This document shows, piece after piece, positions 11,735-49,245 of a DNA stretch of 64,000 bases. The translations under genes were made by a program, and so were the position numbers. The notes beneath the pieces are model-generated. The model had not been told where the DNA came from and ran no database searches. It was given only the letters and a program-made list of their open reading frames with translations. The stretch is from an uncultured virus (IMG/VR IMGVR_UViG_3300038423_000131). Lineage: Duplodnaviria; Heunggongvirae; Uroviricota; Caudoviricetes. The stretch lies in the IMG/VR virus record IMGVR_UViG_3300038423_000131; one strand, 5' to 3'. Positions within the stretch are counted from its first letter, which is position 1, and every line of letters begins with the position of its first letter.

Positions 11735-12250
11735 TTAAAATTGTATGCCTTCTTCACAAACAAGTTTTGAATTTTTAATTTCATTGATTTCGTTGACAAA
11801 ATCTGCTAATTTTCTTAATTTCCTTGTTGCCCCTCTACCCGTCATTACTATATTAAGTTCTGGACATTCTCTTTTAAGATGTTGAAGACAATCAATAACA
11901 TTATCTTCTTCCAGCATTCCAACAGACACAGCATAATTGAGTTCATCAAGTATTAATAGGTTTATATGCTCATATGTGCATTTATAATGAGCGGTAGCTA
12001 ATCCATCTCTGCATACATCTGCATCTGCTTGAGTTAAAGTTGCTACTCCTATCCATTCGGTACTACTGAATTGTCTAATTTCATAATTTGGATGTTTAAA
12101 TAGATATTCGCCAGTAGTTCGGTTCCATTTCAAAAACTGTATGACCAATACCTTTTGACCGTGACCAAGTGCTCTAAGTGCTAACCCTAAAGCAGAAGTC
12201 GTCTTACCCGCTCCTTCGCCGCAATAACAGTATATTATATTGGTAGCCAC
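11735..12250 (-). CDS. cobO: Cob(I)alamin adenosyltransferase (CobO/CobA/BtuR family)
   Basis: GEGAGKTTSALGLALRALGHG, IQFLK, LILDELN, VMTGR, ADFVNE. Confidence 0.92.
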   Translation of the reverse strand: MATNIIYCYCGEGAGKTTSALGLALRALGHGQKVLVIQFLKWNRTTGEYLFKHPNYEIRQFSSTEWIGVATLTQADADVCRDGLATAHYKCTYEHINLLILDELNYAVSVGMLEEDNVIDCLQHLKRECPELNIVMTGRGATRKLRKLADFVNEINEIKNSKLVCEEGIQF

Positions 12251-12744
12251 CTATTATCTAACTTTGAATGAACAATTATATGACAGTTCGAACAAAGTAA
12301 TTGTAACTCATTTAATGGCGGCGGGTGTCTATACCATTTTCCTTTATCTCTTTTTTCTTCTTCAGTTCTGCCGTTAATATGATGCCCACATAGAACTCTA
12401 AAGTCATCGTTACCACAAATTTGACATTTACCACCTAATGCAATTATAACTTCTATTTTCTTTTGTCTATCTAATTGAAGACTTCGTTGTTTATAGCGTT
12501 CATAATTATACGGATTATTTTGTCTCCAATTTCTTTGATATTCTGTATGCTCTTCGGTATTATAATTTCTCTTAGCACTTTCTCTAACTAATTGTCTTGC
12601 TCGTTCAGGGTTATTTTTACGCCACTTAGCCATTGATATTCTTTGTTGTTCTCTCCGTTTAGCTAACCTAATTGGGTCTGATTTTATTTCGTAGTATCGT
12701 TCTCTTGCTCGTTGTCTTGCTTTTTCTGGGTCTTTATAGGGCAT
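12235..12744 (-). mobile_element. HNH homing-endonuclease-like gene inserted at the 5' end of cobO
   Basis: LGGKCQICG...HHING...LQLLCSNCH; own promoter at 12779-12797. Confidence 0.75.
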
Positions 12745-12963
12745 ACTACATATCACCACTATTGTAATGGAAAAACTACTATATAAGTCTTATGGTTATA
12801 AATATATCCCATTATTGAGTCACGACTACAGACCAATCGGTGCTTTGATATACTTTGCCGTCTTGTGGAATAGGTCTGCCAGTATAGCACCATAAACACA
12901 TAGTTTTATCAATTATGCGAACTGTATAATATCCTTTATTTTTACCGCAACATTCACAAATCA

Positions 12964-14744: not shown

Positions 14745-15038
14745 TCAAAATGGAATGAAATGCGCCAAAATCGTGACTACTGCTACTGCAATAGCTAATA
14801 TGGCTGTAGCATATTTATAAACCCGTAGTTCACCTTTCTTCATAGCTTCATTTTCTGTTCGTGTATCCTCTAATGATTTAATTCTTGTATCCATTTTTCC
14901 ATTTTCATCATTCACATGAACGCATAATTCTTTGGCTACTTCAATAATTTCTTTATGCTCTTTCTCATTTGATTTTATCAAGTTACCTAAGCGTTCATCT
15001 ATTCTTGCAATTATTATATCAGGTTTTTCATCAGCCAT
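14745..15038 (-). CDS. Coiled-coil protein with C-terminal TM helix (holin-like, weak)
   Basis: LARIDER-like N-terminal motif and hydrophobic C-terminus. Confidence 0.35.
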   Translation of the reverse strand: MADEKPDIIIARIDERLGNLIKSNEKEHKEIIEVAKELCVHVNDENGKMDTRIKSLEDTRTENEAMKKGELRVYKYATAILAIAVAVVTILAHFIPF

Positions 15039-15092
15039 ATATTAATCACCAATAATTATCTTTTAATTGATTCATCAAGTATTTAAATCTTT

Positions 15093-18000
15093 TTATTGAT
15101 TTACACAAAACCTATCTAATTTAATATGCCCTAATATTTCATCGAATTCCAATTCTAACGGTTCCAAGACTTGGTTTAGCATAGATTCAAGAAAACTCGT
15201 ATATTTATCAACATCAATATCTTGGTTTTTAGCTAATTCTAATGGTAAAACTTTTTCTTTATTTTTGGTTTTAACAAATGATATAATTGAACCTGCTTCC
15301 ATTGCATAACCTTCTTTTTCTAATAATCTAACTGCTTTGATATGTTGTGGAATTGCGGCATAAATTGGTGTACCGTCTTTTCTTGTTCTACTTGTCTTTT
15401 TACCGTAATCACTAAGTCTTTTGTTAACGGTCATGTGGAATGCTAAATCATCTATATCATTCCATTTTCGCTCTTTAAGGTTTTTATACGATTGAAGTGC
15501 AATCTTGCTGATTTTAATTTTTGCTTCTGGAATTTCATCTTCTTTCTGGACATTTTTAAGCACAGCCTTAATTTCATTAAATGATTTCTTGAAATATTCT
15601 GGGGTATGACTTTTTTTACCTGTCATACCTTTAATATCAACTTCGCCGTTTGGTTGAACGCCTATATAATTTTTCTTTCGACTACTGAAACACATAAATC
15701 GATATTCTTTATCAAGTTCAAGGTCAATTTTATATTGTTCAAAAGCCCATTTTTGTAATTCTGGAACTTTATCAGATTTTCTAATGAATAAACTATCTGT
15801 GTCACCGTAAAGAACTATGATTCCCATTTCTATTGCATGTTGAGCCGTAGCTTGAATAATAGACCGAGATATGCCTGCTATTTCTTCTGATACTGGTGGG
15901 CAACCGAATGCGAATCCACCTTCTGTAGCAAAGACTCCATAAGACGCATTCATGAAAACTTTAATTGTTTGTTCGATGCATTTATACCAGCTTTTTTGTG
16001 CATCTGTTAAAACTTTATTCTTACTTTCTTTCTTATACCAACTTAATCTTAAATCTCTTAAGCTTCCAATAAATATACTTTCCAAAGCCTTATGTTTGGT
16101 GCAAATCCAATGTGGAAGATTGCCAAATTTATTACTACCGCATTCACTCATATCCAATAATTCTATGGCAATTAGCGCAAAGGAGTTGTAATTCTGACCA
16201 ATCCACTTTTCTAAGAGTGATGTAAATATTTCTTCCTTCGAACTCATTTCTTCCGTTAATGTGATGTATCTCAAAAGTTCGTTCATCAGTATTTCCACAT
16301 CGTTGACATTTGCCACCTTTAAATTCAATAAATTGTTTTCGTAATTCTTTTCGTTTTTTATTAATCCACCATCGTTGATATTCTTTGGCTCGTTTATACA
16401 ATATTGGATTTGATTTAACTTTTGACCACCAGTTTGCACTTCTTGTTTTTCTTTTATTAGGGTCTTCCATAAGTTTTCTATAACATTTTCTGGCGATTTT
16501 ATGGCATCTTTCTGGGTTATTTTTTCTATATTCTCTATGGTATTCTCTATTTCTTTTTCTATATTCCTCATCAGATTCATTCTTTTTTCTATGGGGCATT
16601 GGTTATCATCTCTTTGTTTAGTTGATAAATAACATAATAACCATATAAATCTTTTGGTTTGATTAGACAATTTTTGCCAACTTTCACCATGTTTACATCT
16701 TATTGTTGCATAACCAACATTATAAAACTTTATCACAGAAGGATAAAGTGAACCATAATCTATATCCTGTACATTAAATGGTACTCCACTTTTAGGTTTA
16801 ATAACCATTGCACCTTCATATTGCTTGCCTTTAATCATGGATTTAGTCGCAACATGTCCTTTCATTTCTAATATGTCTTGAGGGCGTGGGATAAGATAGT
16901 TTAATTGGCGATGCTGACAAAACAAGAAACTTGCTATCCATCTGCCAACTGCTTTTCTTGAGCATTCTTCAATTGGCATCCTGCTAATTCTTGATATGGC
17001 AGTCATTAAGTTCATTACAAGGTTATCATCAAATGTTGTTAATCCAAGAGTTAATTCTGCATCACGCATACAGTAATTAATTAAATCATAATAATCCATG
17101 TCGCCAACCCATTGATGTTCTCCTTTAAGTTTGCCTATTTTTAAAAATAAGTTAGAGAGTACATCTAAGCTCACATCTTTATATTTACCCTGAAACGCAT
17201 AATTCCGTATGGCATTAATTTGGAAGAATCTATAAAGGTCTATGTGGAGTGTACTTCGCATATACATGGATATTCCAGACATAGAAAAAGGTATAAATTC
17301 ATTTTGTATCCCGAATCTATAAGCCCTATTCCTAAGATACATTAAGTCAAAGCCATCGCCATTGAAAGTTATTAAAAGTGGGAACTGCTGTATGTATTTG
17401 AATAGGGCAAGAAGCATTTCTTTTTCATCGCTAAATACATATAATTCGTCAACATTTGGATATTTTTCAAATTGCTTGTTAGGTTGCAAGAGAAGGAACG
17501 CTATTCGCTTGCCGTCTAAAGTTTTTATGCAGGCACATAAAACTGGTAAGTTAGCGATTTCTGGTCTTGGTATTTTCTTCTGTTCATTCAAAACTTCAAT
17601 ATCAAGGCTTGCCCGTCTATAGTTTGGAGCAGGATATTCGAATAACCTAATTAGTTCTTTAGTAATTGATTTCTCTGAGAATAAATCTAATAAGGTGGCT
17701 GTTCTTGATTCAGCGTCTTTATCTATATACGGATTACCTATAGAATCATATGGCATACCCATTTTAACATTATTATCATAGATGTAACCCATATAAAATC
17801 TAATGTGATTTTCCCAAAACTTAGGGGCAGTCTCATCAAACTCTTCATCATCTAAATGTGTTCTCTTAACATCAAGGGGATTGGAAAAATACCCTTTAAA
17901 TAAATCTACAGTAGTGTCATGAAGTGCGTCATATTTTGTGATTTGTGTTATGTTTGTAATTGGTATATTATGAAATGATTCTATATTATCTGATAAGCAA

Positions 18001-18119
18001 TAAGCCTTGTAAGAATCATCATACCATTCTTCAAGTTTTTCTGTAGCTTCATCATAAACTTTTAAATATACTGAATTCTGGTCTTTATCGTATCCTGCTG
18101 ATACTACATATTTAGGCAT
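15093..18119 (-). CDS. polB: Family B DNA polymerase (PolB1-like) with a 540-nt in-frame insertion
   Basis: Exo motifs LDIEV, FNGDGFD, YCMRDA; pol motifs DYGSLYPS, KVFMNASYG, YGDTDS; KGMTGKKSHTP. Confidence 0.93.
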   Translation of the reverse strand: MPKYVVSAGYDKDQNSVYLKVYDEATEKLEEWYDDSYKAYCLSDNIESFHNIPITNITQITKYDALHDTTVDLFKGYFSNPLDVKRTHLDDEEFDETAPKFWENHIRFYMGYIYDNNVKMGMPYDSIGNPYIDKDAESRTATLLDLFSEKSITKELIRLFEYPAPNYRRASLDIEVLNEQKKIPRPEIANLPVLCACIKTLDGKRIAFLLLQPNKQFEKYPNVDELYVFSDEKEMLLALFKYIQQFPLLITFNGDGFDLMYLRNRAYRFGIQNEFIPFSMSGISMYMRSTLHIDLYRFFQINAIRNYAFQGKYKDVSLDVLSNLFLKIGKLKGEHQWVGDMDYYDLINYCMRDAELTLGLTTFDDNLVMNLMTAISRISRMPIEECSRKAVGRWIASFLFCQHRQLNYLIPRPQDILEMKGHVATKSMIKGKQYEGAMVIKPKSGVPFNVQDIDYGSLYPSVIKFYNVGYATIRCKHGESWQKLSNQTKRFIWLLCYLSTKQRDDNQCPIEKRMNLMRNIEKEIENTIENIEKITQKDAIKSPENVIENLWKTLIKEKQEVQTGGQKLNQIQYCINEPKNINDGGLIKNEKNYENNLLNLKVANVNDVEILMNELLRYITLTEEMSSKEEIFTSLLEKWIGQNYNSFALIAIELLDMSECGSNKFGNLPHWICTKHKALESIFIGSLRDLRLSWYKKESKNKVLTDAQKSWYKCIEQTIKVFMNASYGVFATEGGFAFGCPPVSEEIAGISRSIIQATAQHAIEMGIIVLYGDTDSLFIRKSDKVPELQKWAFEQYKIDLELDKEYRFMCFSSRKKNYIGVQPNGEVDIKGMTGKKSHTPEYFKKSFNEIKAVLKNVQKEDEIPEAKIKISKIALQSYKNLKERKWNDIDDLAFHMTVNKRLSDYGKKTSRTRKDGTPIYAAIPQHIKAVRLLEKEGYAMEAGSIISFVKTKNKEKVLPLELAKNQDIDVDKYTSFLESMLNQVLEPLELEFDEILGHIKLDRFCVNQ
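16144..16599 (-). mobile_element. HNH endonuclease ORF nested in an alternative frame of polB
   Basis: GGKCQRCG...EIHHING...LQLLCANCH; internal promoter at 16641-16659. Confidence 0.8.
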
Positions 18120-18224
18120 CTAATCACTTTTACTTATTTAATAGTGACACTCTTATTTAAAGGTTACGGAAACTATAAAAACCAAAAAGTTTATATAGTA
18201 GTTTACAATATCTGTTAGTAGTAA

Positions 18225-22518: not shown

Positions 22519-22875
22519 AAATCAAACACTTCCATTTTTATAGTTGGTGGTTGAGTTGGACTTCCACAATCTAAAATTAGAGATTTTATTTTTAGAGTGT
22601 CATTACCATTTATTTTAACTTTTGTACCATGATATGTGCCATCACTTTCGATTTCAAATTTTCTACCTTTATATTTTATCTGTGGAGTATTATCTTTAAT
22701 TTTTATTCTTTTCATATAGTATCTAACTTCCCTGTTATACAACAATAGTGTTATAGTATATAAATGTTTTGGTCTATTTTTAGTCCAAACAATAATTGTA
22801 AATAGTGATAATTTACTACAAAAGATTTAAATAGTTGTTTAAATTAAATATAAACCAATATTAGAAGGTGAAAGT

Positions 22876-41218: not shown

Positions 41219-43984
41219 ATGTCTTCTCCAAAGAAAACCAGAAAGAAAATAATAGCTAAAGCAGAGGTTAAAGAAACCAATTTAGATTATGATAATTTTG
41301 AAAAGTTTGTTAAGGAAGAAGCGGAGCGTACTGGACAGAATCCACAGAAAATTATTGATGAAACTTTTAAAGATGGGTTTTTAATTTGGACAGTTAATGA
41401 TACTGCGGCTATAGCTGGAGAAGGTAAGCCTGCTAACAGCACTACTATAAGTCAATCTAAATTAGATAGTATGATTGCAAGTATTCAAGCTAATAAAAAT
41501 CTTTCTCAAGATGACAAAACAATTGCCGTATCCCACATAATGGAAACTTATAAAGTTGGCGAATCTGCAACTGCTGGTGGTATAACTCAGGCTACGCCAG
41601 TTTTAACGGCATGGGCTATGCCTCAAGACGCTAATGATGTTGATGAACATAGGCGTTTAAGAAAAGAATTTGCACCAGTATCGAGAGCAATAGATTATCT
41701 TAAATCAACCATTATGGGTAATAATCTTGATGTTTTGATTGATGACCCAGCAGATAAGTATAAACTTGACCTTAAAGAACAACTTCAAGATTTTATGAGG
41801 GATATTTATCAAGACCAATATACAACTTCACTTTATTCGCTTTTGGGCATTATGCTTGATGAAGCCTTAACTGTTGGCGGTGCAGGTGCAGAAATTAGAT
41901 ATAATGTTGACCCTGACCATTACCCAAAATTTTGGGATTATGTTAAATCAGTTAAACAATCTCCGTTGCCAGTTGGCAAAGGTCCACTTGGCGGAACAAG
42001 TGGTAGCGGATATACTTACTTTGAAAGTAAAGAACCAGAGTGGAAAAAACTAAATGAAATTGTTCAACTTAAACTTTTGAAAAATGGAATAGGAAGATTA
42101 AAGTTATATCGTGAGCCCAGAACTTGGGAAGCTAATTATTGGACTTTAGATGAAATAGTTGGTTCTGGAGATACTGCAATGGCTATTCACCAATTAACTT
42201 TAAAAGATGATTCAGGACAAGTTCTTAGATATTATCCTTGGCAAATGTTTTGGCTCAACCTTAATAGGCGTGAATATGATGAACGTGGAATAAGTGTTAT
42301 TGAACCAGTTAAAAAGACAGCATTACTATTAGAAAAAATTCTTAGTTCAGTAGGTGAAGGAATATATCGTGCTGGAAACAAGAAATATTTCATTATTTGT
42401 GGAACAGAAAAGAGACCTTGGAGCAAACCACATATTAGAAATGTAATGCAACAGATTCAGGAAATGGGTAAGCGTAATTGGACAAATGTGCCAGTTCCAT
42501 ATGGATTTGACATTAAGGATATAGGTGGAACAGTTTTTGAAGCCGAATCTGTAATTGCCAATTTAACTCAGATATTAGCTCAAGGTATGCATGTTCCATT
42601 GTCAGTCGTTATACCAGCAAGAGAAGCACCAGAAAGTGCTAAAGAAGAATCAGGAGCAAGTTTTAATGAAATTGAACGAATGAGACATGAATTTAAGCAG
42701 GCTGTGGAGCAACAATTATTTAAGAAACAACTTTGGTGCAAGCATGGTAAGACACGCCAGAAGCAAGGTGGTGCAGTTGCACCTATGTATGTGCCTGAAC
42801 TTGAACAATCAACTAAAGGTTTACAAAGCCCAATAGAGAGACTTACAACTATAATTCAAATCCTTAATGTTGCTAACCCTGTTGACCCGCAACTTAAACT
42901 TGAACTTGACCGTGAATTCGCTAAGATATTAGGTTATGATATGATTAAAATGAAGACTCAGGAAAAGTTGCGTAAAGAACTTGATGTTATGCAAGAACAG
43001 AAAGAGGAACAGGCAGAATTAGCGTTGAAACAAACTAAACTTGGTATTGAAAATGCAAAGAAAGCCGCTCAACAATCACAACCAACAACTAATCCTATTG
43101 GCAAGCAACAAGGTCAACCTCAACCGCCAACAGAAGATAAGCAACAGAAGCGTCTTGCAAGTGGCGTAAGTAAAAATCTTAAAGGTAAAGCAAAGCCTAT
43201 GGGTGGTCCAAGAACACCTAAAGAAAATAAAGGAGTAAGTGAAACTGCTGTAGATGAAAGTAATATAGAAGAAGAAGAAACTAATGTAGAAGAAACTACA
43301 GAAGTTCAAGAATTCGATACTTTAAAACAGGAACCAGCCGCACATCCGCAACATATTGTTCCATCAAGCGAATATAAAGGTGAAAGTAGCCAGAAGACAG
43401 GTGGCAATTATGGTCCACAAGGATACCATACAGTTATTATTGGTAAAGGCACTATGCGTAAGTTTTCAATTAAGAAGGGTGAAGGAGAATTTATTACAGC
43501 ATTTATTAATCCCTTAACTCAAGAAGAAGTTGAAGTTGTTAAAACACAATTATCAGATGGAATAGCTGGATTCAGCGAAGATATGTCAAAGATTTATATA
43601 GATGAAGCCGTTCCAAATTGGATGTATCTTGGCTTAATAACTCATGAAACCTTTGAAATGACCATGATGAAAACATTAGGATTTGAATATAGATTTGCAC
43701 ATATTAAAGCTACAGAAGTTGAAAAAGAAGCAGTTGAAAATCTTGGAATAGATTGGAAGAAATATGATGATGAATACAAGCGTCTGCTTAAAGTAGTTGA
43801 AGAACGCAAACCTCATCCATCTAATCCTAAAGATATAGAAAAAAGTAAATGGAGTAAAGTAGCTGGCGGCAAAGGCGGTGGTGGTGGAATGGACAGTTCA
43901 AGGTTAGGTCATACTGCCCAAGAGGATACAGGACAGCCATTGATGGGTCGTAGTGAATTGCAATATTCAAAAGATAAGCCGTAG
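41219..43984 (+). CDS. Portal protein with long C-terminal extension
   Basis: VSRAIDYL, RGISVIEP, LAQGMHVPLSV portal-like pattern; C-terminal HETFE domain. Confidence 0.7.
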   Translation: MSSPKKTRKKIIAKAEVKETNLDYDNFEKFVKEEAERTGQNPQKIIDETFKDGFLIWTVNDTAAIAGEGKPANSTTISQSKLDSMIASIQANKNLSQDDKTIAVSHIMETYKVGESATAGGITQATPVLTAWAMPQDANDVDEHRRLRKEFAPVSRAIDYLKSTIMGNNLDVLIDDPADKYKLDLKEQLQDFMRDIYQDQYTTSLYSLLGIMLDEALTVGGAGAEIRYNVDPDHYPKFWDYVKSVKQSPLPVGKGPLGGTSGSGYTYFESKEPEWKKLNEIVQLKLLKNGIGRLKLYREPRTWEANYWTLDEIVGSGDTAMAIHQLTLKDDSGQVLRYYPWQMFWLNLNRREYDERGISVIEPVKKTALLLEKILSSVGEGIYRAGNKKYFIICGTEKRPWSKPHIRNVMQQIQEMGKRNWTNVPVPYGFDIKDIGGTVFEAESVIANLTQILAQGMHVPLSVVIPAREAPESAKEESGASFNEIERMRHEFKQAVEQQLFKKQLWCKHGKTRQKQGGAVAPMYVPELEQSTKGLQSPIERLTTIIQILNVANPVDPQLKLELDREFAKILGYDMIKMKTQEKLRKELDVMQEQKEEQAELALKQTKLGIENAKKAAQQSQPTTNPIGKQQGQPQPPTEDKQQKRLASGVSKNLKGKAKPMGGPRTPKENKGVSETAVDESNIEEEETNVEETTEVQEFDTLKQEPAAHPQHIVPSSEYKGESSQKTGGNYGPQGYHTVIIGKGTMRKFSIKKGEGEFITAFINPLTQEEVEVVKTQLSDGIAGFSEDMSKIYIDEAVPNWMYLGLITHETFEMTMMKTLGFEYRFAHIKATEVEKEAVENLGIDWKKYDDEYKRLLKVVEERKPHPSNPKDIEKSKWSKVAGGKGGGGGMDSSRLGHTAQEDTGQPLMGRSELQYSKDKP

Positions 43985-44048
43985 CAAAAGATTTAAATAA
44001 TTGTTTAACAAATATATTATGAGTGGAAACTATGGAGTGTGATAAATA

Positions 44049-49184: not shown

Positions 49185-49245
49185 TTGTTATATATAATAA
49201 AAAGATTTAAATACTTGAACCTCTCATTTATATCAATGATAAACT

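Follow-up and report, generated by a model that had tools for sequence, protein, structure and literature searches.

A candidate splice-free homing element with an HNH endonuclease gene in another frame, within the DNA polymerase gene of a putative archaeal virus

To our knowledge, homing endonuclease genes have been thought to persist in essential genes only by means of self-splicing introns or inteins. The inteins of family B DNA polymerases (PolB) from archaea and viruses are in-frame insertions driven by homing endonucleases, occupy conserved sites in polB, and leave one long open reading frame (ORF). HNH genes are commonly found within group I introns in the DNA polymerase genes of phages, and I-HmuI of SPO1 is an HNH endonuclease encoded by such an intron.

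Hidden out-of-frame HNH endonucleases have been described in mycobacteriophage DNA methylases as the ShiLan domain and the Pacc40 gp60 insertion (Arsenault, Gosselin and Gogarten 2025, PMC11855218). In that 2025 account, splice-free read-through was put forward for a single dispensable phage methylase and is, experimentally, a proposal; the ShiLan endonuclease starts at a GTG 18 nt into the insert, for which leaderless initiation is suggested (PMC11855218). Free-standing HNH homing endonucleases that split genes are exemplified, in the reports consulted, by T4 mobE and the Aeh1 nrdA split (PMC2790892, PMC3045599).

The DNA analysed here (the window) is a 64,000-nt stretch from an uncultured virus (IMG/VR IMGVR_UViG_3300038423_000131). 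Its polB gene, on the minus strand, contains a 540-nt insert in which an HNH gene lies in another frame. The features, with positions in the window, are:

15093..18119, minus strand: family B DNA polymerase ORF (polB), 1008 aa, unbroken from start to stop across the insert (PF00136, 1.5e-25; PF03104, 2e-18)
16683..18119, minus strand: PolB host part 1, residues 1-479, with the exonuclease domain and motif A (DYGSLYPS), ending in IRCKHGE
16143..16682, minus strand: putative homing element, 540 nt or 180 codons in the polB frame, in phase, beginning at polB nt 1438
16643..16654, minus strand: BRE/TATA-type promoter AAAGATTTATAT, copying the virus promoter consensus exactly and lying 43 nt upstream of the ATG of the HNH ORF
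16605..16610, minus strand: GATGAT, a possible Shine-Dalgarno-like site, one mismatch from the GGTGAT that precedes other genes of the virus
16144..16599, minus strand: HNH endonuclease ORF in the third frame, 151 aa, 456 nt (PF01844), with its TGA stop at 16144-16146
15093..16142, minus strand: PolB host part 2, residues 660-1008, with the fingers, motif B, YGDTDS and the thumb, beginning with CGSNKFGNLPHWIC

The exonuclease and polymerase domains of PolB were present with motifs A, B and C (Pfam PF00136 and PF03104; alignment). SLYPS, NASYG and YGDTDS were invariant or nearly so in the PolB alignment, and all catalytic motifs were invariant in the occupied alleles. The closest solved structure was 1s5j, matched by the insert-free allele P0002 (E 3.9e-146), and the PolBs of the phage collection were only distantly related (at most 27% identical). 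The virus also encodes MCM and RadA; judged from these and from the archaeal-type PolB, the host appears to be archaeal.

A preliminary description of this DNA had placed a 540-nt insert precisely within polB, and comparison with insertion-free alleles agreed with it. In-silico removal of the insert joined IRCKHGE directly to CGSNKFGNLPHWIC, as in the CPH-EECKSN of insert-free homologues, which align across the deletion (alignment A1). The borders are fuzzy by up to about two codons, because occupied alleles read H-G-x and empty alleles H-E-E. The GTGAA direct repeat reported earlier was found at both ends of the insert in the window, with matching GAA codons at both flanks, and the HNH stop codon does lie inside its second copy. 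The repeat was not conserved: the homologous element of another polB allele (L003) lacks GTGAA, its junctions being GGT CAA/TTT and TAT GAG/TGT, and GTGAA therefore appears to be a chance feature of the window copy.

Misassembly, which would remove the insert, was not borne out. The stretch was detected in 24 public runs, none of them listed as an RNA run, and in two of the four examined a single contig covered the entire insert and both junctions with zero differing letters (X14 record 2, 15348-16781; X24 record 25, 16014-16775); no joint skipping the insert was found in these four runs. The same insert was present in L001 and L002 (~99% identity). L002 was discarded as evidence of low variation in the insert: none of its 28 differences lay in the insert, but 26 of the 28 clustered at polB nt 206-466.

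The nested ORF scored above the Pfam gathering cut-off for PF01844 (E 1.2e-7; 32.2 bits vs 21.4). It carries the motif pattern CxxC ... HH ... CxxCH, and C98, C101, H113, C141, N143 and C144 were invariant in eight relatives. It shared 61% identity with the HNH nested in L003 and 37% with a free-standing HNH paralogue in the window (12235-12759), and HNH was found as its own called protein four times. The AlphaFold2 model of the HNH protein had a mean pLDDT of 86.4, and a fold search with it returned weak HNH-type matches only (best E 0.12), HNH nucleases, none significant, occupying the top rows. The insert terminates 1 nt beyond the HNH stop codon in the window, and L003 and an element in a methyltransferase gene (L005) have equal stop-plus-1 geometry, provided that the insert is taken to end there.

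The promoter called earlier at 16641-16659 was upheld as to its position and corrected as to its kind: the site includes a stretch that fits the virus-wide promoter motif AAAGATTTAWAT exactly (28 matches with at most one mismatch vs 6.8 expected), but it is of the archaeal BRE/TATA type and not bacterial. The promoter block reads KRFIW in the polB frame. The identical block is found in L003, and a TATA-like one stands at a similar distance in L005. Two other ideas on the nested region were dropped. A -1 frameshift from the polB frame into the HNH frame was rejected, as the polB frame has no X XXY YYZ site near the HNH start. A zinc ribbon formed from Cys pairs in the read-through frame was abandoned because the HNH start (CA-ATG-C) and the choice of Leu codons in ELQLLC account for the Cys residues.

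The polB frame had no stop in the 180 codons of the insert, as had been described, and the remaining frame had 28 stops over the 456-nt HNH ORF. Zero stops in the polB frame of the window had a low probability both by codon permutation of the HNH ORF (P = 0.0013; 4.2 stops expected) and by synonymous resampling (P = 0.0009; 4.2-5.3 stops expected across both methods). Codon permutation gave P = 0.0046 for L003 (3.6 stops expected) and P = 0.015 for L005 (3.0 stops expected); with 3-5 chance stops expected per element, each single case reaches a P of 1e-2 to 1e-3 only. The host frame was stop-free in all three elements with DNA sequence (the window and L003 in polB, L005 in a methyltransferase gene). 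Chance is an unlikely source of the open host frame (P ~0.001; 4-5 stops expected), a figure to be read with an ascertainment bias: most family members were picked up as called proteins, among which open frames are favoured, and the window was chosen for its open frame. The same relative frame had 11 stops in the free-standing paralogue at 12235-12759 and 6 in another free-standing paralogue.

Within the element, purifying selection acts on the HNH frame. In the HNH domain, most differences between the window and L003 fell at HNH wobble positions (0.27 vs 0.14 and 0.15); in the polB flanks of the same pair the polB wobble position was fastest (0.58-0.63). In 17 inserts available as protein only, third-frame coding of the window's HNH residues was possible at 22-57 of 26-63 positions (at most 22 in shuffled controls), and for one of them (P0124) the predicted third-frame HNH was confirmed by the DNA of L005. 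The read-through peptide changed fastest where change is silent for the HNH frame, e.g., in a Y/S/F alternation at an Ile wobble position, and it therefore looks like a passenger rather than a catalytic domain.

Read-through inserts occurred in 9 of 68 near-full-length PolBs, eight at the site occupied in the window and one (P0061) at another, and insert-free PolB alleles included P0002 (80% identical). A profile of the read-through peptide, searched against 1.84 billion representative proteins, gave 12 matches (protein clusters), ten of them embedded in a host protein; the hosts were PolB, DUF6899, Methyltransf_11, ERCC4 (two) and CobA. Counting the PolB hits as well, the element family is present at six sites, two of them in PolB; the other host families, which bring the number of gene families to five, are DUF6899, a SAM-methyltransferase, an ERCC4 nuclease and CobA. 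Its distribution is patchy. The PolB tree required nine changes of insert state, at least seven of them forced by well-supported branches, and each occupied allele adjoined empty kin (P0061/P0041, P0014/P0055, P0001/P0002). An 88-aa protein (P0125) looks like a frameshifted, broken copy of the element. This protein and P0143, a PolB fragment of 163 aa, are each on a 54,637-bp contig. Scans of IMG/VR viral contigs with the C-terminal half of PolB, the insert alignment, P0018 and P0142 gave no matches, and a scan with P0061 returned only its insert-free relative L004. The first genome-contig scan with the insert alignment also gave no matches.

The locus is likely to carry a splice-free homing element that is translated through as a loop of PolB, with the HNH gene expressed from the element's own promoter. 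A homing element tolerated unspliced by read-through as a loop had been suggested in the preliminary description, and the suggestion gained from the open frames (3/3), the embedded profile matches (10/12), the scattering in the tree and the lack of splicing features detailed below. The element comprises a promoter of the BRE/TATA type, a short leader whose Shine-Dalgarno sequence is weak, and the HNH ORF; it would have inserted between codons, directly behind motif A, in a PolB loop that tolerates indels. A length that is a multiple of three, together with the choice of HNH codons, leaves no stop in the host frame, since the base after each NTA or NTG codon is one with which no TAA, TAG or TGA arises; ribosomes translating polB would therefore run through the insert and yield a polymerase about 180 residues longer.

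The additional PolB segment is predicted to be a hydrophilic excursion, mostly helical or disordered. The AlphaFold2 model of PolB (mean pLDDT 86; pTM 0.81) had a mean pLDDT of ~91 outside the insert and ~63 within it, where helices alternate with linkers and residues 527-542 and 562-587 fall below 50. The longer polymerase would presumably be active; an insertion of 180 residues that separates motif A from the fingers may well impair a replicative polymerase. The HNH protein would be made separately, in the third frame, from a transcript started at the element's promoter. It may cut insert-free polB alleles of co-infecting relatives, whose repair would copy the element in (homing).

Removal of the insert from the RNA, as a divergent group I or group II intron or as an archaeal BHB intron excised by the host splicing endonuclease, with the open frame incidental, is an unlikely account. 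That HNH genes are common passengers of group I introns in the DNA polymerase genes of phages speaks for it, and BHB splicing would be available in principle because the host appears archaeal by its MCM, RadA and PolB. Nevertheless, a search of the Rfam intron families, which covers the group I search proposed earlier, had no match at E up to 10, just 83 of the 540 nt lie outside the HNH ORF, and none of the six GTGAA registers gives a U at the exon end plus a G at the intron end. A strict hBHBh' (3-nt bulge, 4-bp helix, 3-nt bulge), which random position pairs yield 7-10% of the time, was absent within 8 nt of the junctions in the window and L003, and cofolding the junctions yielded z-scores of 0.43 and -1.45; covariance models and the strict scan may overlook divergent ribozymes or relaxed BHB forms. 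Moreover, RNA splicing predicts no selection for a stop-free host frame, yet the frame was open in all three elements known as DNA and in ten of the 12 profile matches. Removal after translation, by unknown self-splicing or proteolysis as in a non-canonical intein-like element, is more doubtful still. It does require the open host frame that was seen, and Cys follows the insert in all alleles, but the same Cys stands in the empty alleles. The first residue of the insert is not conserved (S, Q, K, L, V, L, L), its ends (SE/SN/SE/YE/YD/SS/YN) show no terminal His-Asn, and no conserved first-residue nucleophile was found across the compared elements. Pfam detected no Hint domain in the 180-aa read-through peptide, and the fast change of that peptide at HNH-silent positions is passenger-like. 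The lack of an intein motif, a BHB and a group I core, noted earlier by inspection, held in the Pfam, Rfam, strict BHB and junction-residue comparisons.

Very improbable, and slightly more so than removal from the protein, is a PolB that is split, with its C-terminal half restarted at MSECGSN or made from the internal promoter and assembling with the N-terminal half, or a PolB that is non-functional or dispensable. Split archaeal PolBs are known, the internal promoter is on the same strand and might drive transcription of the 3' half of polB as well, and the virus also encodes MCM and RadA. The in-frame ATG of MSECGSN exists at 16151 as described; restarting there was not supported, since Met occupies the position in only three of eight compared elements (the window, L003 and P0018) and no GGTGA-type Shine-Dalgarno sequence precedes the ATG. 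A stop-free insert would not be expected in a split or dead gene, nor do the occupied alleles depart from the catalytic motifs. None of 445 candidate proteins shorter than 554 aa carried the insert peptide (weak evidence, from a word-based search of limited sensitivity). Ribosome bypass from the GAA before the insert to the GAA at its end, in the style of T4 gene 60, had also been considered in the preliminary description and can practically be dismissed. Matching GAA codons do flank the insert of the window, but GAA/GAA occurs only there and the corresponding codons of L003 are CAA and GAG; bypass has no need of an open frame, and the hop would be of 540 nt vs the 50 nt given for the known gap of the T4 gene 60 type (bioRxiv 10.1101/2022.08.31.505936).

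Translation through an unspliced homing element, the preferred explanation, would extend the read-through proposal to archaeal viruses and to a replicative DNA polymerase, and reveals a whole element family across several host genes. The hidden-HNH layout in mycobacteriophage methylases is already published; the archaeal virus, the replicative polymerase and the own promoter are new here. A promoter embedded in the host frame is a candidate answer to how a hidden nuclease is expressed. With moderate confidence, these elements can be regarded as "frame-transparent", combining an own promoter with codon tuning suited to any host frame. They would represent a single lineage of a third general strategy, besides introns and inteins, for lodging homing endonuclease genes within essential coding sequences. 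In archaeal viruses, and perhaps in archaeal cells too, they would have colonised no fewer than six sites in five gene families, including a replicative polymerase that works with a 180-residue passenger loop beside its active site. Nested genes of this type are concealed by gene callers, and parasites may be present in "long" metagenomic polymerases; the inserts are also natural evidence for where PolB tolerates large insertions.

Like the PolB inteins, the window element is an in-frame homing insertion that leaves one long polB ORF; unlike them, it has neither a Hint domain, nor a conserved junction nucleophile, nor a terminal His-Asn, its endonuclease lies in another frame, and protein splicing is not expected. 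It shares with I-HmuI of SPO1 an HNH homing endonuclease that interrupts a viral DNA polymerase gene and a patchy distribution, and differs in that no ribozyme was detected in the window, the ORF leaves only 83 nt of the insert uncovered and the host frame stays open. The systems of T4 mobE and the Aeh1 nrdA split, as reported (PMC2790892, PMC3045599), likewise suggest HNH homing with no intron or intein, and the window has a free-standing HNH paralogue of its own; polB, however, remains one ORF and not two cistrons. The likeness is closest to ShiLan as presented in the published account (PMC11855218): an insert in a conserved gene, missing in close relatives and patchily distributed, with a host frame that has no stops, neither intron nor intein signatures, and a predicted loop away from the host fold. 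The window element has this layout in its 540-nt in-phase insert, its open host frame, its third-frame HNH at the 3' edge and its lack of intron and intein marks. It appears to resemble ShiLan in lifestyle and not in lineage; tblastn of the window HNH against 50,697 phage records matched 37 (E up to 1e-3), none of them a Mycobacterium phage. Relative to that account (PMC11855218), the host of the element is a putative archaeal virus instead of an actinophage, the interrupted gene is a replicative and presumably essential PolB instead of a dispensable methylase, the HNH gene begins 83 nt into the insert behind a BRE/TATA promoter and a Shine-Dalgarno-like site, and a single element family occupies all six sites in the five gene families.

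The window came from a tailed archaeal-virus genome encoding MCM, RadA, a large terminase, a class II-like ribonucleotide reductase and CobA. The interrupted locus comprised the following features:

15093-18119, minus strand: family B DNA polymerase gene (polB), a single ORF of 1008 aa
16143-16682, minus strand: insert of 540 nt (180 codons), beginning exactly in polB phase
16144-16599, minus strand: nested HNH ORF of 151 aa in the third frame, above the Pfam HNH threshold (E 1.2e-7)

Every element of the preliminary description of the insert was present (ORF, frames, deletion junction, promoter and ATG). The polB frame had no stops across its 180 codons, as had been described, and the HNH ORF did lie in another frame; the remaining frame had 28 stops within the HNH ORF. 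Removal of the insert in silico restored polB: the junction read IRCKHGE/CGSNKF... and aligned with CPH-EECKSN of insert-free homologues. Misassembly, named beforehand as what would remove the insert, was excluded and the locus is genuine, because two other metagenome contigs (L001 and L002) carried it at about 99% identity, the stretch was present in 24 public DNA runs, and the whole insert with both junctions lay on one contig with no differences in two of the four runs examined. A joint skipping the insert was found in none of those four. Of the 28 polB differences that separate L002 from the window, 26 were clustered within 260 nt of the N-terminal part (polB nt 206-466; about 17654-17914 in the window), a stretch that was also polymorphic among public-run contigs and looks like a recombination mosaic.

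Two relatives provided DNA of more divergent elements:

L003: divergent polB with flanks 47-50% identical to the window's, a 552-nt insert and an intact 154-aa HNH ORF in the third frame
L005: SAM-methyltransferase gene of a Bathyarchaeota MAG contig, with an intact HNH ORF in the third frame

Between the window and L003, the polB wobble position changed fastest in the polB flanks (0.58-0.63 differences per site), and the HNH wobble position changed fastest in the HNH domain (0.27 vs. 0.14 and 0.15). HNH proteins were 61% identical and the 180-codon read-through peptides 53%. For 17 inserts available as protein only, the residues encodable by the third frame were computed, with shuffled peptides as control; of the 26-63 aligned positions, 22-57 could encode the window HNH residues (CxxC, HH and CxxCH included), against at most 22 in the control. 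The third-frame inference for one of these proteins (P0124) was borne out by L005 DNA. By the wobble pattern and third-frame encodability, it is the HNH nuclease that is conserved. In these comparisons the read-through peptide acts as a passenger, its main constraint being the absence of stops, and its apparent conservation results from overlap with the HNH frame: NVNDVEILMNELL overlies CQRCGNTDERTFEI, IGKNYNSF.PIVTEL overlies DW.ELQLLCANCHRI, and QC overlies the HNH start (CA-ATG-C).

The high Lys, Arg and Glu content of the HNH protein meant that few stops were expected in the overlapping frame. Codon permutation of the HNH ORF gave a mean of 4.2 stops and none in 0.13% of 20,000 trials, and synonymous-codon resampling with the virus's own usage gave none in 0.09%; the open host frame of the window insert thus exceeded chance. 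The HNH ORF has seven NTA or NTG codons, each followed by a base that prevents a stop. The host frame was also stop-free in L003 (P = 0.0046) and L005 (P = 0.015). A free-standing HNH paralogue in the window (12235-12759, 37% identical) had 11 stops in the same relative frame.

Upstream regions of the virus genes shared the BRE/TATA-like motif AAAGATTTAWAT, followed by a GGTGA-type Shine-Dalgarno sequence. Window-wide, it matched with at most one mismatch 28 times vs. 6.8 expected, and most exact copies lay 21-50 nt before gene starts (manual count):

216-227, 15081-15092, 22821-22832, 43987-43998 and 49201-49212: examples of AAAGATTTAWAT copies
16643-16654, HNH strand: exact AAAGATTTAWAT copy within the insert, 43 nt before the HNH ATG

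The promoter claimed for the insert was therefore retained as an exact match to the virus consensus on the HNH strand, and its type was specified as archaeal. A one-mismatch Shine-Dalgarno sequence (GATGAT) lay downstream of it. The 18-nt promoter block was identical in L003, and L005 had AGAAGTCTTATATAT at 38 nt. In the polB frame the motif read KRFIW, and this TATA variant was stop-free in all frames. Possession of its own predicted promoter implies that the nuclease would be transcribed independently of polB. Another exact copy (43588-43599, plus strand) lay inside a 921-aa ORF (41219-43984), and no nested same-strand ORF of at least 30 aa followed it.

A spliced mRNA would make the insert an ordinary intron. 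Rfam at permissive thresholds gave no intron family over 15000-18200, and only 83 nt of the insert lay outside the HNH ORF. Group I end rules failed in every register within the GTGAA direct repeat at the insert ends, no archaeal hBHBh' motif occurred within 8 nt of both junctions in the window or L003, and junction cofolding was no better than in shuffles. The earlier failure to see a BHB or group I core thus held up, as did that for an intein: the read-through peptide had no Hint domain, and junction residues were not conserved. Ribosomal bypassing from GAA to GAA was ruled out, since L003 lacked the GTGAA repeat and had CAA and GAG as flanking codons. The in-frame ATG of MSECGSN, proposed as a restart for a split polymerase, was present in the window; its Met occurred at the equivalent position in only three of eight elements.

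Insert-free PolBs in the protein search were at most 80% identical (P0002 and others). Seven further PolBs had a read-through insert; six of them shared the window's insertion site, and P0061 had its insert elsewhere. On a tree of 68 near-full-length PolBs with insert columns removed (the partial row P0054 dropped from 69), nine state changes were needed for the nine occupied alleles, and well-supported branches forced no fewer than seven of these. Their scatter equalled that of shuffled labels, and every occupied allele adjoined empty kin (e.g., P0061 beside P0041). As judged from this tree, the scattered distribution is what is expected of an active homing element. The empty site of L004 read TGC CCT CAT GAA GAA TGT AAA. 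Occupied alleles had H-G-x vs. H-E-E in empty ones, which places the insert borders only to within about two codons; the H-G-x residues would fit flank changes that were co-converted or immunising.

When 1.84 billion representative proteins of any length were searched with a read-through-peptide profile, 12 matched. The insert was embedded between host sequences in ten (five PolB, two ERCC4 nucleases, and one each of DUF6899, Methyltransf_11 and CobA/BtuR adenosyltransferase), and in the non-PolB hosts it broke the Pfam domain. Together with the other PolB inserts, these matches place the family at six sites in five gene families. The other two were short ORFs: P0125 reads as frameshifted and its contig equals in length that of a PolB fragment, so a broken copy or an error in sequencing is probable, and P0127 sits on a 696-bp contig. 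No protein under 554 aa with the window's insert peptide was found, in a word-based search that makes this weak evidence. Protein records place P0018 (PolB plus insert) and P0122 (DUF6899 plus insert) on a 106,774-bp contig, which probably means two elements of this family in a single viral genome. In L005 (1883-4485), the element-bearing methyltransferase has as neighbours another methyltransferase-like ORF and a pair of paralogous ORFs, each about 330 aa long; either the family may extend to the genomes of archaeal cells, or the contig may be of viral origin. One contig of run X18 shared only the promoter block (window 16641-16676), and its L003-like flanks suggest that both virus lineages co-occur there.

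The window's free-standing paralogue (minus strand) lies directly upstream of CobA (11735-12250), overlapping its start by 16 nt. The CobA gene of a relative (P0129) carries a read-through element, and the family thus exists both free-standing and nested. Immediately upstream of its interrupted polB, L003 also has a second, free-standing HNH gene (1619-2080, 153 aa), which overlaps the polB start at 2043 and has six stops in the corresponding frame.

By alignment with Sulfolobus PolB1 (1s5j), the insertion site falls in a loop that bears indels and lies between motif A and the fingers. AlphaFold2 with 81 sequences gave the full 1008-aa PolB a pTM of 0.81, with mean pLDDT of about 91 for the core and 63 for the insert (averages from block values); the insert formed helices (476-661) interrupted by two segments below 50. 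The HNH frame was modelled confidently (mean pLDDT 86.4) as helical repeats with a short beta-beta-alpha end, and its HNH-nuclease matches in Foldseek were not significant.

Stop-free frames, scattered distribution and the failure to find intron or intein features support the proposed homing element tolerated without splicing, and a read-through HNH element is fairly probable. We infer that translation would continue through the insert, that the longer polymerase would be active and that the element would home.

In a full-text literature search, a single publication with this arrangement came up; it reports the ShiLan domain and the Pacc40 insertion, found in DNA methylases of mycobacteriophages (PMC11855218). 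Their geometry matches the window's, with the HNH in the third frame and its stop within the last four bases. That work was computational, its host gene was a dispensable methylase, and it left the nuclease's mode of translation open; it mentions archaea only for an intein and lists no polymerase host (PMC11855218). The window HNH is not close to any mycobacteriophage sequence, so the resemblance is one of lifestyle, apparently with more than one origin. New here are the archaeal-virus setting, the invasion of a replicative polymerase by a hidden HNH element, and a single element family that bears an embedded BRE/TATA promoter and occupies six sites across five gene families.
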